Part shown: one piece after another, positions 905 to 47,842 of the stretch
Numbering within the stretch: position 1 is the first letter of the stretch
How the letters are laid out: every line of letters starts with the position of its first letter
Assembly: GCA_041178425.1 (NCBI GenBank)
Contig: JBEGVH010000010.1
Coordinates: 1-64,000, forward strand
From: Pseudomonadota bacterium
GTDB lineage: Bacteria > Bdellovibrionota > Bdellovibrionia > Bdellovibrionales > Bdellovibrionaceae
Direction of reading: 5' to 3'
DNA: 64,000 nucleotides
Notes under the pieces: generated by a model
What the model was told of the DNA's origin: nothing
Seen by the model: the letters and a program-made list of their open reading frames with translations, nothing else
Databases searched by the model: none
Program-made: the position numbers and the translations under genes

Positions 905-981
<77 letters not shown>

Positions 982-991
982 AATGCCTAAC

Positions 992-1029
992 GCTCTTTCA
1001 AAACTAAATAGCTAGAAGATTTATGGGTT
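992..1029 (-). repeat. 3' arm of the 16S processing stem (inverted repeat of 2653-2694)
   Basis: GCTCTTTCAAAACTAAATAGCTAGAAGATTTATGGGTT is near-complementary to leader 2653-2694. This fits an RNase III processing stalk flanking 16S. Confidence 0.8.
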
Positions 1030-1062
1030 TCTACGAGAAAATCTCGTATGACCTAGGAAAAA

Positions 1063-2584
<1,522 letters not shown>

Positions 2585-43623: not shown

Positions 43624-45042
43624 TTACGGTACTAAGAGTATATCCGATATTATTTGGTCATAGGCCGTTCGAACAGACGCACCGTCTTTATTTCCATTAT
43701 AGATAAACGCAAAAGAAAGGACTTCTCCATCTTCCATTCCGATGTAGCCCGCTAAGGAGGCCACCCCGGTCAATAGACCGGTTTTTGCTCGAACCCACCT
43801 TTGTGCACGTTCATTTTTCATACGATTTTTCAAAGTCCCGTCAACACCCGCGATTGGGAGACTCGAAACAAACTCAGGAAACAATCGAAAGTCTCTTCTC
43901 ACTTTTTCAAGAACTTTCACAAGAGCTCGAGACGAAAATTTATTATCTCGGGTTAATCCTGAAGGATTATATATTTCAAACTCTTGATCTGAAACCCCAG
44001 CCTTCCTCACGCTTTCTCTAATAAAGTCTAAACCCGTAGCCAAGTTTCCTTGAACTTCGTTGTACGCACCCAACTGTTTGGTCAGCATCTCGGCAACATA
44101 GTTACTAGAGAATTTATTCATGTCCGCCAAAAGCTGTTCAATCGGCTTACTTGGAGCCTCTGCTAACAACTTCGATCCAGCCGGTGCTTTTCCTGACCTG
44201 GTTTTTCCTTTAACACTGATTCCTCGCTGAGAGAGGAACTCTTTTAAATTAGCACCTGTCCAGGCGATTGGATCGGTGATTCCTTTGTAAGAAACCACTT
44301 CTTTGCTATCATTATCGATTTTTCCCCTCACGATAATTTGATCCCTCCCCTCTGAATCTCGCTGGCGAGAGACGTTGAAATCAGACTTTTTTGCCGTCGT
44401 GAGTTCGGCTTTTAACGTGATGTATTCGTTGACAGGGTCAATGAATACTCGTGCTGGGTCTCCTATTTTCTCACCTGGTCGCAGGAACACATTAACCGCG
44501 TTCCAATTTAAGGACATCGCTCCCACCGGTGCATCGTAGGCTCTATCTACGCGAGCATCTTCACGTGACTCATCAAATCTCTTTTCATCGAAGAGGCTGT
44601 CGTCGACGACAATGTCCCCCTCAATAGTTTTGATTCCTTCTCTTTTGAAGACATTTACTAAATACCACATCGTTTCAGATACGAAACCAGAATCTCCACC
44701 TCCAACAAGGTAAAGATCGCCCTTTAATTGTCCGTCCTCCACTTTTGCTGTAGATACTAAGCGAGTTGAAAATTTGGTGCCGGGAGGAATGTGTTCCAAA
44801 ACCGCAAGGGCGGTAAATAACTTCGTGACCGAGGCAGGGATCAACTTTTTATTAGCATTGATATCGACAATCTCTTTGCCTTTTTTGAAGACAGAAACGC
44901 TGAGGCTAGACCCACTCATGCCATGCTTTTTAAATGCCTTTTCGACCCTATTTGTGAGATCGGTCTCTGTTTTTGCCAACGCCCAGTGCTCCTGAAATAT
45001 CAAGAGTCCGATACAAACTGCTACCAATCCTTTGATAGTCAT
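43624..45042 (-). CDS. dacB: D-Ala-D-Ala carboxypeptidase/endopeptidase (PBP4)
   Basis: PASVTK (SxxK), SSN (SxN), KTG and GVDGTL. Confidence 0.93.
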   Translation of the reverse strand: MTIKGLVAVCIGLLIFQEHWALAKTETDLTNRVEKAFKKHGMSGSSLSVSVFKKGKEIVDINANKKLIPASVTKLFTALAVLEHIPPGTKFSTRLVSTAKVEDGQLKGDLYLVGGGDSGFVSETMWYLVNVFKREGIKTIEGDIVVDDSLFDEKRFDESREDARVDRAYDAPVGAMSLNWNAVNVFLRPGEKIGDPARVFIDPVNEYITLKAELTTAKKSDFNVSRQRDSEGRDQIIVRGKIDNDSKEVVSYKGITDPIAWTGANLKEFLSQRGISVKGKTRSGKAPAGSKLLAEAPSKPIEQLLADMNKFSSNYVAEMLTKQLGAYNEVQGNLATGLDFIRESVRKAGVSDQEFEIYNPSGLTRDNKFSSRALVKVLEKVRRDFRLFPEFVSSLPIAGVDGTLKNRMKNERAQRWVRAKTGLLTGVASLAGYIGMEDGEVLSFAFIYNGNKDGASVRTAYDQIISDILLVP

Positions 45043-45150
45043 ATGTCCTCCAAAAATTACCCACTAATTCTAGACCAAAGTGTGTCTTTATTTTCAGTGT
45101 AACCATTCCGAAAAGTAAACTGAATATCTAATTTGGGATGAAAAAAAGGA

Positions 45151-47025
45151 ATGAAGCGTAAAGATTGGTTTTTAAATCTACTACCTCTTTTTTTAGTTTG
45201 GCTGACCGATGGTTTTTCCAAACTATGGGGAGATTCGCTTACCCAATCGCTGGATTGGGGAGTTCTTCACTTTCAATCTCATTATTCTTCCAGTGTTTTT
45301 TTAGGATTCTTCTCTGAACTCCCCCCTTCCCTAAGAATCTTTTCCCTCTGCACAATCGCCCTATTCCTGGCACTCTCCTACGGGACCACTCAAATCATGT
45401 GGCCTATCAAGTCAGTCAAATTTAAAGTAGGCCTTTCTCTTGTATCCGGAGCCCTTATGGGAATTCTGACCGAATGGATTTACCGAGGATACGGCAGCAC
45501 CATTTTGACAATTCAAATTGCGAATTTTAAAAGCCCCGAATTTAGCCTGGCTCACTTATCTTTTTGGATTGGCTTAGGATCCATTGGGATTTCCCTCTTT
45601 ACCGACAAAGAGCTCTTTGTGCCCAATGATAATAAACGGCGAAAAAGGCTATGGATCAATCACGACTATCAACTTAGATTTATTTTTCTTCTTCTGGGGA
45701 GTGCTCTTTCAATAACTTTGATTGGCATGATTTTTTCCTACACCTACCTAAGAATGACTATAAGCGCATTTATCGGCGACAATATGGCCTTAACAAATAA
45801 GCTTTTAGTCCCTTATTTGCTTACGTTTTTTATTATATGCCTCAATTTTTGTGGCCTCTTGATTTTCTGGGGGCGTAAAATCTCCCATCGACATGCGGGA
45901 CCGATCTACGCTTTTGACAAGTATGTTAACGACCTTATTGAAGGTCGAAATCGAAGGTTCGCCCTGCGCACCAACGATGAATTCAAGCTCTTAGAGTCAA
46001 CGGGAAGAAATATTGCTGAACACTTTTTGGAAAATGGTCTCATCGACTCAGATGATGAAATTAAGGTGTTAACAACTCATAAAAGTAATTCAGAGGACTT
46101 TTCCCTGGGAGCTATTCCCATGGAAGGACAGAACCCGGATTATTCTGAAAAAAGTAATAATCTTCTTCATAATCTAAAATTGAGTATCAATGCCAACCAC
46201 GTAAGATCAGACTGTCCCCTTTGCAAAGAAGTATCGTCGATGCATTTCCAAAGCTCAATTGGTGATCATCTTGCCGAATGTGTTCATTGTCATTTTATTT
46301 TTGATCCGTCACAACACTATGTCACCAAGAGAAAAAAAAGCGCCATCGTCTCAGATTCAGAAAAAGAATCTTACTACCGACAGCTTAACGACGTTCTTGT
46401 AAATTCTGATTCAACGATAAAATCCAACGAAAGTTTGGCCCGCATCTTTTCCCTCTCCTTAGGTTCGACAAATAAAGAATGGCTTTACGAATTCAATAAT
46501 TCTCCTGGATGGCAAATTTTTTCCCACGATGGACTAACCACTATTGACGCAAATCTATCCCCTCCGCATTTTGACCTTATGGCTCTCAACAATATCATTG
46601 AATGGAGCCAAGACCCTCATAAGCTCTTGGATTTTTGCTACCAACAGCTTAATACAAATGGGTTATTGTATATCGTCACACCCAATCGGGAATCATTTAT
46701 TGCAAGGTGGTTTCCAAAGTACTGGCTAATAGCAACAGAGGAACCTTATGGGATTTTCAATTTTGAACTTCTTGCCAAAACCCTCAACAATCACTCGTTT
46801 GAAGTCATCTCTCATGAAGCACACCTCACAAAGATAACTCTTGAAGAGCTTTTGACCAAAATGAGCAAACACTCTTCTTTTTGGCCTCAGCTTTTATTAA
46901 GTATAATTCCTAAAATGGTGGCTCAAAAATTGACGATCCATCTCCCACTGGGACAAATGGCCTTAGTTGCAAGAAAATTGGTTAAGTCGACAAGCCTGCC
47001 GATGGACAGGGCATCGAATCTCTAA
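45151..47025 (+). CDS. multidomain membrane protein: inactive LspA-like + HAMP-like + zinc ribbon + degenerate methyltransferase-like domains
   Basis: The N-terminus follows the signal peptidase II layout without the catalytic Asp residues. It is followed by SHRHAGPI...LRTNDEF, CPLC-x18-CVHC and FDLMALNNIIEW...LNTNGLLYIVTPN. Confidence 0.7.
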   Translation: MKRKDWFLNLLPLFLVWLTDGFSKLWGDSLTQSLDWGVLHFQSHYSSSVFLGFFSELPPSLRIFSLCTIALFLALSYGTTQIMWPIKSVKFKVGLSLVSGALMGILTEWIYRGYGSTILTIQIANFKSPEFSLAHLSFWIGLGSIGISLFTDKELFVPNDNKRRKRLWINHDYQLRFIFLLLGSALSITLIGMIFSYTYLRMTISAFIGDNMALTNKLLVPYLLTFFIICLNFCGLLIFWGRKISHRHAGPIYAFDKYVNDLIEGRNRRFALRTNDEFKLLESTGRNIAEHFLENGLIDSDDEIKVLTTHKSNSEDFSLGAIPMEGQNPDYSEKSNNLLHNLKLSINANHVRSDCPLCKEVSSMHFQSSIGDHLAECVHCHFIFDPSQHYVTKRKKSAIVSDSEKESYYRQLNDVLVNSDSTIKSNESLARIFSLSLGSTNKEWLYEFNNSPGWQIFSHDGLTTIDANLSPPHFDLMALNNIIEWSQDPHKLLDFCYQQLNTNGLLYIVTPNRESFIARWFPKYWLIATEEPYGIFNFELLAKTLNNHSFEVISHEAHLTKITLEELLTKMSKHSSFWPQLLLSIIPKMVAQKLTIHLPLGQMALVARKLVKSTSLPMDRASNL

Positions 47026-47842
47026 TGTCTTTTAAATAAAATCGTTTTTTTTGATTTTCAATCAAGCAATGAGCCGCAAGATAGTCGCCATCTGGATTTC
47101 TTACAATGCCCTGAGGGTGAGCTTTGCGCGTTTGTCCCTTGCGCGAACCACCCAAATAAACAAATTCAATGTCTTGATCTTTTTCTAAGGCTTCAATTAA
47201 TCCGCGGAGGTCATGATTATGCTTTAAAGCATTAATAGAATAGTTTTTCCAAGAAAGATCCTTGCCTTGAACCGACAAAATACTCCTTAAATTCGCGGTT
47301 TCGCCCAGGAGGCGAAAACAATGCAAAGCCACCTCAAGACAGGCTCTGGCATCACTTTCCGCTCGATGTGCTGGACCAGCTTCAATCTTCAAATGCTTAA
47401 TAAGTGTCTGAAGCTTATGGTTATCTGATCCTTTAATTAATTTTCGAGAAATAAGACTGCTGCAAAGGGGAGGCGTTAAGGGAAGACTATATCCGAATTT
47501 CTCCATCTCCCAAACTAAGAAACCAAGATCAAAGGGCGCGTGATGGGCGATGAGAATTCCATCTCCAATAAACCTAACCACATCTTCAATCACAGCATTC
47601 ATCGACGGAGCATTTGCCACCATTTCATTGGTGATTCCGTGAATCTTGATGACCTCTTCTCCCATCGGCTTACGAGGACGAATCAATTGATTAAACGACG
47701 CGATTTCCTTACCGTTTTGCCACTTAACGAGTCCCACCTCAACAATTTCATTTCCCAAAGGGTATGCGCCTGAGGTTTCTGTATCAAAGGCAATAAAAGT
47801 TAGTTCCGACCATGGGGTGTCAATTAGAGATTCTTTTTTCAC
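46982..47842 (-). CDS. DEDDh 3'-5' exonuclease (DnaQ-like) with C-terminal WYL domain
   Basis: FDTETSG, HHAPFD and HRAESDA; C-terminal IEFVY...RKAHP...YLAAHC...KRFYLKDI. Confidence 0.85.
   Translation of the reverse strand: MKKESLIDTPWSELTFIAFDTETSGAYPLGNEIVEVGLVKWQNGKEIASFNQLIRPRKPMGEEVIKIHGITNEMVANAPSMNAVIEDVVRFIGDGILIAHHAPFDLGFLVWEMEKFGYSLPLTPPLCSSLISRKLIKGSDNHKLQTLIKHLKIEAGPAHRAESDARACLEVALHCFRLLGETANLRSILSVQGKDLSWKNYSINALKHNHDLRGLIEALEKDQDIEFVYLGGSRKGQTRKAHPQGIVRNPDGDYLAAHCLIENQKKRFYLKDIRDSMPCPSAGLST

Follow-up and report, generated by a model that had tools for sequence, protein, structure and literature searches.

A signal peptidase II fold without its catalytic residues, joined through a HAMP-like linker to a partial methyltransferase in a Bdellovibrionota genome

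The window analysed here is a stretch of 64,000 nucleotides from a Bdellovibrionota genome (contig JBEGVH010000010.1, positions 1 to 64,000). One of its open reading frames (ORFs), P0001 (Table 1), encodes a protein in which a signal peptidase II (LspA) fold is followed by two more transmembrane (TM) helices, a HAMP-like linker, a predicted zinc ribbon and what is left of a class I methyltransferase. It is very probably a real, selectively maintained double pseudoenzyme, neither a decaying gene nor an assembly chimera. LspA is regarded as a small, stand-alone, essential enzyme and antibiotic target. The window protein belongs to the LspA superfamily in a long form, coupled to a HAMP-like linker, that is undescribed, and here that form is a double pseudoenzyme. 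A search of the literature, supplementary tables excepted, found no description of an inactive LspA homologue, of an LspA-HAMP architecture or of an LspA-methyltransferase fusion.

A sequence-only reading of this stretch had proposed a one-component receptor built from two pseudoenzymes. The eroded motifs that it listed (GILTEW, GSTI with T117, FSLAH with H135, SSS and the four cysteines) were all found at the residues it gave, the stretch SHRHAGPIYAF...LRTNDEFKLLE corresponds to residues 245-282 of the protein, and the domain order that it proposed, from LspA fold through two TM helices, HAMP-like linker and zinc ribbon to methyltransferase fold, holds. Overall it was right in part. It missed the orthologous fusions in which both enzymes look intact, and also that the N-terminal module forms a family spread across the order, whose members usually retain the catalytic dyad.

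The two altered enzyme domains

According to the available part of the structure paper on Staphylococcus aureus LspA, 14 highly conserved residues surround the active and substrate sites, and mutagenesis supports Asp118 and Asp136 as the catalytic dyad (PMC6952399). The corresponding columns were inspected in an alignment of the window protein with 42 other rows, namely 33 long-LspA frames from related genomes and from the same genome, the canonical LspA, and eight database proteins, two of which duplicate two of the frames. This family alignment contains neither L004, whose place is that of L005, nor a weak second frame of L026. Where the canonical residues are D K N G G N D R V D F N A D, the window protein has D K S S A I E W G T F S A H, so that four of the 14 signature residues are retained (D20, K24, F131, A134). 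In the other rows these columns are conserved in 40 to 42 of 42 cases, except for the Phe column (F in 30, M in 10, W in 2). The two dyad columns hold T117 and H135, as against Asp in 41 and in all 42 of the other rows. No Asp stands at a catalytic column in a proper alignment, as the earlier reading had claimed, and judged by these residues the LspA domain is catalytically dead.

Profile searches gave scores to match. On the window protein Peptidase_A8 (Pfam) reached 17.1 bits, for a cut-off of 25, over profile positions 3-140 of 142. In a six-frame search the gene scored 21.7 bits and was alone below the Pfam cut-off among 93 Peptidase_A8 matches in 41 related genomes, all others scoring at least 71. 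The best NCBIfam match was 23.1 bits against a cut-off of 177, and the lipoprotein signal peptidase and methyltransferase hits were all below threshold. That the protein could still be an ordinary signal peptidase II, its losses being an artefact of alignment, is scarcely credible: it shares the fold and, by homology, the family, but the motif columns are free of gaps among the 43 rows, no Asp lies within the aligned motifs, and the Peptidase_A8 score is the lowest of the 93.

An AlphaFold model of the protein, computed from an 80-row alignment, had a mean predicted local distance difference test (pLDDT) score of 78.3, with high confidence at residues 1-300 and 470-610. Superposition of its residues 1-150 on Pseudomonas aeruginosa LspA (5DIR_A) gave Z 17.5 and a root-mean-square deviation of 2.4 A over 148 of 157 residues. 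For 6RYP and 6RYO, Z was 17.0-17.1, and the Foldseek TM-scores for 6RYP, 6RYO and 5DIR, normalised to the target, were 0.74-0.82. The N-terminus is thus predicted to be LspA-like, as the sequence-only reading had supposed. The window sequence appears compatible with the LspA and methyltransferase folds, in a model that is informed by intact homologues. The protein resembles LspA (Peptidase_A8; 5DIR, 6RYO, 6RYP) in its four-helix membrane fold, beta-cradle, motif order and homology via intact relatives. It differs from LspA in the replacement of both dyad Asp and of eight more signature residues, in its scores below the Pfam and NCBIfam cut-offs, and in some 470 extra residues.

At the other end of the protein, Methyltransf_23 (Pfam) matched with 34.3 bits, above its cut-off of 27, but covering only profile positions 80-163 of 164. 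In the alignment of ten fusion proteins, the columns of motif I (DIGCxxG) are gaps in P0001 and in its close relative P0002; the glycine-rich S-adenosylmethionine (SAM) loop, which the earlier reading had reported missing, is deleted. In the full-length model, the confident strands of the methyltransferase part begin at residue 474, and pLDDT is below 50 at 434-470. Methyltransferase chains align to the model at Z 9-11.7 and, once stretches of low confidence are trimmed, most of these alignments span about residue 462 to 610 of the model and the later part of the target chain. The closest known counterparts are zinc-ribbon class I methyltransferases (L040-L046, and the TcaB9/KijD1-type C-methyltransferases), in which an N-terminal CxxC...CxxC likewise precedes a Methyltransf_23 fold; 4E2Z and 5T6B align to the window model at Z 9.3-9.5. 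Unlike them, the window copy has neither motif I nor the first half of the Rossmann fold.

The cysteines C355, C358, C377 and C380 are invariant in all ten fusions, with the two CxxC pairs about 18 residues apart, and the same N-terminal CxxC pair is present in all seven stand-alone methyltransferase relatives. They form a predicted zinc ribbon; Pfam zinc-ribbon matches on the window protein are weak. Ahead of the ribbon lies an acidic segment with 11 positions invariant in the ten fusions (D299, D302, K305, L307, T308, T309, D316, A321, P323, P329, Y331). The stand-alone methyltransferases, with frames that start near the ribbon, lack this segment, which may be a docking motif. The stand-alone proteins were found in seven other genomes, all with CxxC...CxxC and an intact motif I, and match the C-terminus of an intact fusion at E values of 1e-24 to 1e-48. 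Six of the seven (L041-L046) have a second CxxC pair near the C-terminus, resembling a second ribbon, which the fusions lack.

Relatives, locus and history of the fusion

The frame contains no internal stop codon and starts with MKRKDW, as in all relatives. A contig of run X4 (127,490 bases) covers positions 43624-47842 with 114 substitutions and no indels. In run X2 two contigs match, one ending at 45745 and one beginning at 45760, and X2 alone does not bridge the gene. P0002 is a protein of 624 residues, 97% identical to the window protein and with the same degenerate motifs. An assembly chimera is ruled out by the X4 contig across the gene, by P0002 and by intact fusions at the same locus elsewhere; the fusion is present in other genomes and runs, a check that the sequence-only reading had proposed.

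A word-index search returned nine relatives of the window protein, P0002 and eight more of 591-646 residues at 35-39% identity. Seven of these eight divergent fusions (all but P0006) keep GNxxDR, VVDF and NLAD. Among these seven, motif I (DxGCxxG) is unaltered in five, has Lys at the first Gly in P0009 and is deleted in P0004, which keeps the dyad. The intact fusions (P0003 from genome G001, P0008 from G004, P0005, P0007, P0009 and P0010) share with the window protein the domain order, the four cysteines and the acidic segment; they differ from it in keeping the LspA motifs and, with the reservation given for P0009, the full motif I. The four cysteines, the linker and the acidic segment are invariant in all ten fusions. 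P0006 is a full-length frame of 646 residues, 37-40% identical to the window protein, in which the first catalytic Asp is replaced by Q and Arg109 by P, while the second Asp and most of the methyltransferase are kept.

A tree of the N-terminal module was built from 41 rows, with a root for drawing only; P0003 and P0008 were dropped as identical to L006 and L007 over the first 295 residues. The fusions form a clade with 100/100 support, within which the window protein pairs with P0006 at 99/97. Terminal branches are 1.11 for the window protein, 1.04 for P0006 and 0.06-0.46 for the others. Erosion of either enzyme has happened more than once in the fusion clade, because P0006 lost the first Asp while P0004 lost motif I.

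With a limit of E 0.001, an exhaustive search recovered 631 representatives, of which 178 had E values up to 1e-10. Most members of this family have 280-340 residues and match residues 1 to about 295 only. All 30 members that were examined for domains, chosen partly by length, exceed the Peptidase_A8 cut-off; the extra domains found in them were AhpC/TSA (12), methyltransferase (3) and Peptidase_S74 (2). The 290-residue module is strongly matched (E 7.7e-42 or better) in 40 of 41 related genomes, the exception, G015, being 87% complete. A short canonical lspA frame (163-228 residues) is also present in 40 of the 41, the exception, G020, being 67% complete. Fusion-bearing genomes belong to uncultured Pseudobdellovibrionaceae, and more distant genomes with the module to Bdellovibrionales, Bacteriovoracaceae and Bdellovibrionota metagenome-assembled genomes. 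In public sources the relatives carry no other name than "signal peptidase II".

In the genome of the window, a canonical lspA (172 residues, 144.8 bits) adjoins lgt on the same contig, outside the window, so that the intact copy that the sequence-only reading had asked to be confirmed does exist. Two long-LspA paralogues with intact motifs lie on contigs C7 and C26; one has 637 residues with a Pro-rich tail, and the other has 664 and ends in Peptidase_S74. The 664-residue paralogue (G000 contig C26, L003 1..1995, minus strand; P0016) matches Peptidase_S74 with 33.2 bits, which is odd for a tail presumed to be cytoplasmic, Peptidase_S74 being the intramolecular chaperone of endosialidase and tail-fibre proteins.

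Several other combinations were encountered. LspA, two TM helices and linker are joined to a peroxiredoxin-like AhpC/TSA domain in many relatives of 430-520 residues (P0037, P0041, P0051, P0053, P0060, P0062, P0067, P0072, P0074, P0091, P0115 and P0120); P0136 has the 2TM-linker part and AhpC/TSA without the LspA part. The 2TM module with its SHRIAGPxY...LRxxD[DE] linker also occurs alone in proteins of 151-218 residues (L065, 1172..1627, plus strand; L067 in G028, 950..1606, plus strand). In G006, a protein of 562 residues (L066, 1107..2795, plus strand) carries the 2TM-linker module followed by a pilin-like GFSLIEVLVV segment.

The window gene is the positional orthologue of the long LspA and of the intact fusions. 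In L055 (G001) and L056 (G004) an intact fusion gene stands between the same neighbours as in the window, and the two are positional orthologues of the window gene, with an E value of about 1e-119 for the G001 protein. Identity to the window counterparts is 37% at both loci for the fusion, 71% and 69% for the PBP4-type dacB, and 60% and 59% for a LysM-SLT transglycosylase. The RNase_T/WYL exonuclease (75%) and motB (66%) were matched in L056 and not in L055. Among 384 genomes of the order, only G001 and G004 matched the C-terminal half as a fusion. In other genera the same slot holds a short form of the long LspA, flanked by dacB in 7 and by the exonuclease in 5 of 12 compared loci, most of which had only 1.5-kb flanks. 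The long LspA of Bdellovibrionales (LspA, two TM helices and HAMP-like linker, about 300-390 residues) thus shares with the window protein the dacB/RNase_T-WYL locus, the 295-residue N-terminal module and the linker residues P251 and R273. It differs in keeping the full dyad, whereas the window copy has lost it and carries the remnant of a zinc-ribbon methyltransferase.

Three steps make up the history: an order-wide long LspA at the dacB locus, its fusion to a zinc-ribbon methyltransferase in one Pseudobdellovibrionaceae genus, and the loss of both sites in the window lineage. This order of events follows from the shared slot, the intact fusions in G001 and G004 and the stand-alone methyltransferases elsewhere. 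A diguanylate cyclase (Response_reg and GGDEF) lies beside the short long-LspA gene in 4 of the 12 loci (L011 2401..3387, L015 2556..3515, L012 and L008).

Maintenance of the frame

Selection on the frame was estimated from a comparison strain about 3% diverged. Differences inside the gene were counted from pieces of run X5, and the whole gene was bounded from the X4 total of 114. The X5 pieces cover 1189 of the gene's 1875 bases and show 41 nucleotide differences, and P0002 has 12 residue differences there, giving a ratio of nonsynonymous to synonymous differences per site (pN/pS) of about 0.11. For the whole gene, 55-74 nucleotide and 18 amino-acid differences bound the ratio at 0.09-0.14. 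In dacB, the 40 listed substitutions, shared by X5 and X4, change 4 of 472 residues (pN/pS 0.03). Between the window protein and P0002 there is no indel, and 16 of the 18 replacements have BLOSUM62 scores of at least 0. Replacements are fewer in residues 1-300 (4) than in 301-624 (14; Fisher p = 0.03), and codons 83-143, which span the dead motifs, contain four nucleotide changes, none of which alters an amino acid. Purifying selection acts on the frame and is strongest in the membrane module; for this one strain pair the direction is clear. The contention of the sequence-only reading that selection, not simple decay, keeps the frame open is thereby borne out, pN/pS being about 0.1 and not near 1.

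Over the longer distance to an intact orthologue, the HAMP-like linker has kept 67% identity (85% between the intact pair), TM5-6 53% (80%), the zinc ribbon 47% (58%), the LspA domain 41% (75%), and the N-terminal and C-terminal halves of the methyltransferase 15% (64%) and 25% (53%). The erosion of the methyltransferase N-half is one of the points in favour of a gene on its way out, whose function went with the active sites and whose remaining constraint reflects a misfolding cost or too little time. The long terminal branch compared with intact members, the 37% identity of the gene where neighbours have 59-75%, and its absence in the genus-mate G003 point the same way. Such decay is nevertheless quite improbable in view of the low pN/pS, the conservative substitutions and the lack of indels and stops in two strains about 3% apart. 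In the sister P0006 the first catalytic Asp is missing too while the frame remains full-length, which suggests that the loss of catalysis is old.

Divergence from the X5/X4 strain changes sharply near the 3' end of the fusion gene when 43624..46875 is compared with 47312..47842, from 40 differences in 1419 bases of dacB and 41 in 1189 of the fusion gene to 1 in the 551 bases of the exonuclease gene that X5 covers. This may mark a recombination boundary. A scan for promoters and terminators around the gene was uninformative (5 promoter-like sites for 4.6 expected, and 1 terminator-like site for 2.5 expected).

Table 1. Features of the fusion gene and its two neighbours, in window coordinates (aa, amino acids)
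Feature	Position	Strand	Remarks
Whole ORF, degenerate fusion of long LspA, zinc ribbon and methyltransferase (P0001)	45151..47025	+	624 aa plus stop
LspA-fold domain, aa 1-155, four TM helices and beta-cradle, catalytically dead as judged by its residues	45151..45615	+	Peptidase_A8 and 5DIR_A match
SSS, aa 46-48, in place of beta-cradle N-x-G	45286..45294	+	N at column 46 in 41/42 and G at column 48 in 41/42 other rows
GILTEW, aa 104-109, in place of GNxxDR	45460..45477	+	other rows: N105 42/42, D108 42/42, R109 41/42
GSTI, aa 115-118, in place of VVDF; first catalytic Asp replaced by T117	45493..45504	+	D in 41/42 other rows
FSLAH, aa 131-135, in place of FNxAD; second catalytic Asp replaced by H135	45541..45555	+	D in 42/42 other rows
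TM5 and TM6, aa 171-243, short outside loop	45661..45879	+	model helices 171-208 and 212-263, pLDDT about 90; core of predicted homodimer interface
HAMP-like juxtamembrane linker, aa 244-298 (SHRHAGP...G...LRTNDEF...)	45880..46044	+	hhalign; helix-connector-helix in the model
Acidic segment, aa 299-335 (D..D..K.LTT...D....A.P.....P.Y)	46045..46155	+	specific to methyltransferase fusions; pLDDT 39-57
Predicted four-Cys zinc ribbon, aa 353-388 (C355, C358, C377, C380)	46207..46314	+	Cys invariant in 10/10 fusions
Remnant of SAM-binding half of methyltransferase, aa 389-470, motif I deleted	46315..46560	+	alignment gaps; pLDDT below 50 at 434-470
Retained C-terminal half of class I methyltransferase fold, aa 471-612	46561..46986	+	Methyltransf_23; pLDDT 80-94
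PBP4-type D-Ala-D-Ala carboxypeptidase (dacB-like), divergent neighbour	43624..45042	-	Peptidase_S13 315.9 bits
RNase_T and WYL exonuclease, convergent neighbour, 3' end overlapping the ORF by 44 bases	46982..47842	-	RNase_T 107.5 bits, WYL 26.6 bits

The membrane module and possible functions

HAMP domains are recognised by a segment of about 50 residues directly after the last TM helix, folded as helix-connector-helix, in which helix 1 opens with a Pro, the connector with a Gly and helix 2 with an acidic pair. In the model of the window protein, a helix (212-263), a connector (264-279) and a second helix (280-294) likewise give a helix-connector-helix directly after TM6. P251 and R273 are invariant across 80 linker sequences. 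Six genuine HAMP domains are encoded in this genome, and P251, G265 and D276-E277 align with their Pro, Gly and DE. When a profile of 79 linkers was aligned by hhalign to these six domains (Pfam E up to 0.01), it scored 20.5 in global and 21.0 in local mode. Column-shuffled controls scored 3.5 +/- 2.2 (maximum 11.2) and 8.7 +/- 1.8 (maximum 14.6), and none of 100 reached the observed values. A transitive link to HAMP-bearing kinases comes from L065 (G000 contig C22), the 151-residue stand-alone 2TM-linker protein mentioned above, which matches window residues 170-312. It also matches the NCBIfam models MtrB, YfiN, WalK, BaeS and one methyl-accepting chemotaxis protein (MCP), over stretches that we take to be TM2-HAMP segments. 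For residues 166-301 of the window protein, structural alignment with a WalK model reached Z 9.6, a weak score where helices are concerned.

The window linker is not among the six Pfam HAMP matches of its genome (E up to 0.01). No Pfam domain (E up to 1) was found in 11 short relatives of the 2TM-linker part, and the linker has no name in Pfam or NCBIfam. A search of PDB sequences with the linker profile gave five hits at E 0.21-2.2, all of them rejected as unrelated (5-oxoprolinase, ketol-acid reductoisomerase and SPC42 among them). There is moderate support for residues 244-298 as a divergent HAMP or HAMP-like module. The HAMP-like linker of the sequence-only reading stands to that extent, carried by the hhalign comparison with shuffled profiles, the transitive link to kinases and the predicted dimeric bundle, with the silence of Pfam HAMP on the other side.

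A complex prediction for two copies of residues 1-300 gave a homodimer with its contacts in TM5, TM6 and the linker, and scored 0.47 against 0.00 for the best control. The scoring mark is reached by 20 of 30 proteins solved as one-chain pairs and by 1 of 23 solved as single chains, counts that hold only roughly here because the prediction used its own alignment. At least 96% of the contacts agreed between runs, with pLDDT of at least 69. The predicted interface is symmetric and involves TM5 (180-208), TM6 (218-240) and the linker helices (244-263 and 277-297), with residue 284 contacting 256 and 259 across the copies. We infer that the linker and the C-terminal part are cytoplasmic, because positive residues flank TM5 and TM6 on the cytoplasmic side and because a methyltransferase needs SAM. 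Kinases and cyclases of the 2TM-HAMP type (WalK, BaeS, MtrB, YfiN) are similar in having two TM helices with a short outer loop, followed by helix-connector-helix; for the window protein a parallel dimer along these helices is predicted. The window protein differs from them in lacking a kinase, cyclase or MCP output and a Pfam HAMP match, and in that its input is a fused LspA fold instead of a periplasmic domain.

The window protein probably binds or regulates rather than catalyses, because both catalytic parts are lost while the dimer-forming linker stays conserved. The receptor function that the sequence-only reading suggested, for lipoproteins, lipopeptides or LspA inhibitors, is conjectural; we propose, tentatively, that the protein binds and transduces. 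In the inner membrane it would pair with a second copy of itself through TM5, TM6 and the HAMP-like bundle. The groove of its dead LspA domain would bind, without cleaving, the signal peptides of lipoproteins or similar lipidated peptides, and occupancy of the groove would be relayed through the bundle to the cytoplasmic zinc ribbon and half-methyltransferase, which would act as an adaptor for a partner and not as an enzyme. The canonical lspA, together with the two intact long-LspA paralogues, would see to housekeeping cleavage. In favour of the proposal, the N-terminal module is found with AhpC/TSA, Peptidase_S74, a methyltransferase or no further domain behind it, an interchange also seen in receptor modules. 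The label "one-component", given to this receptor by the sequence-only reading, is not apt, no recognised output domain being present.

Several observations weigh against this proposal. The genus-mate G003 lacks the gene at the locus, the exonuclease directly abutting dacB, and the gene is therefore dispensable. It is odd for a transducer that, in most members of the family, nothing follows the linker. Pfam HAMP (PF00672) was matched neither in the window protein (E up to 10) nor in any of 30 relatives (E up to 0.1), the linker profile found no HAMP chain among PDB sequences, and the NCBIfam matches of L065 are far below their cut-offs. The homodimer is a prediction only, and the LspA-like fold is read from a model whose underlying alignment consists mostly of intact homologues. 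The pN/pS values combine nucleotide counts from X5 and X4 with amino-acid differences of P0002, for one strain pair. Finally, binding by the dead groove is pure conjecture.

Many pseudoenzymes regulate their active paralogues, and the main rival to the proposal is that the dead copy is a regulatory subunit, which would associate with the active long paralogues of contigs C7 and C26 by way of TM5/TM6 and the HAMP-like bundle and would tune or block them. Both of these have the same TM5/TM6/linker module, the predicted interface falls exactly within it, and the linker is the best-conserved part of the protein. The paralogues are, however, only about 35% identical over the module, and a second long paralogue likewise accompanies the intact fusions in G001 and G004, so that coexistence is not specific to the dead copy. 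We regard this as unlikely. It is very improbable, in turn, that the protein is a new enzyme, in which a remodelled pocket (E108, S116/T117, E130, H135) turns the LspA scaffold to another reaction. The residues that replace the dyad are polar, potentially catalytic and identical in P0002, and the dead domain is the most constrained part, but the pocket residues are carried by two near-identical sequences only and are not common to the sister P0006.

The proposal of binding and transduction could be extended to the whole family. The long LspAs would then be a class of membrane transducers in Bdellovibrionota, with an intramembrane signal-peptidase fold as the input of a dimeric 2TM-HAMP relay and with swappable cytoplasmic domains (AhpC/TSA, S74-type, methyltransferase or none). 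This extension is doubtful. If true, lipoprotein-processing traffic or exposure to lipopeptides would be coupled to a cytoplasmic response, and the window copy would show that sensing is separable from cleavage.

A known protein that comes to mind for the intact fusions is PilD, whose active site faces the cytoplasm and whose zinc site is bound by four Cys. Its likeness lies in the combination of a membrane aspartyl peptidase with a zinc-dependent N-methyltransferase activity, as described in the available part of the source (PMC3584216). Fold and family are unrelated, and the window copy has in any case lost the one activity and the other. In LspA the dyad is placed near the outer face of the membrane (PMC6952399), and a fused cytoplasmic methyltransferase therefore cannot reach the LspA cleavage product. 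A PilD-like, bifunctional reading of the intact fusions was set aside, the methyltransferase being presumed cytoplasmic. Several lspA-family genes in one predatory bacterium are also found in Myxococcus xanthus (lspA1-4; PMC8689077). These differ in that they are described as peptidases no longer than usual, of which two belong to the myxovirescin cluster, and none is described as inactive or fused in the available part of that paper (PMC8689077).

An order of predatory bacteria thus carries, beside the housekeeping enzyme, a second, longer LspA tied to a HAMP-like dimerisation module. This LspA-2TM-linker module has been joined to different cytoplasmic domains, and one lineage is without catalytic residues at either end. 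If the dead domain has kept the ability to bind signal peptides or lipopeptides directed at LspA, it would serve as a natural probe of the LspA groove, one that does not cleave, and as a lead to how predators monitor envelope lipoprotein traffic. The conserved site beside the PBP4-type dacB offers an experimentally accessible start in cultivable Bdellovibrio.

The last 44 bases of the fusion ORF (46982..47025) are shared with the 3' end of the convergent exonuclease ORF. The same last letters, SNL, are found in three divergent fusion lineages, the window protein (RASNL, the SNL codons at 47014..47022), P0006 (KTSNL) and P0007 (KASNL), and this shared C-terminus may be a C-terminal recognition motif.

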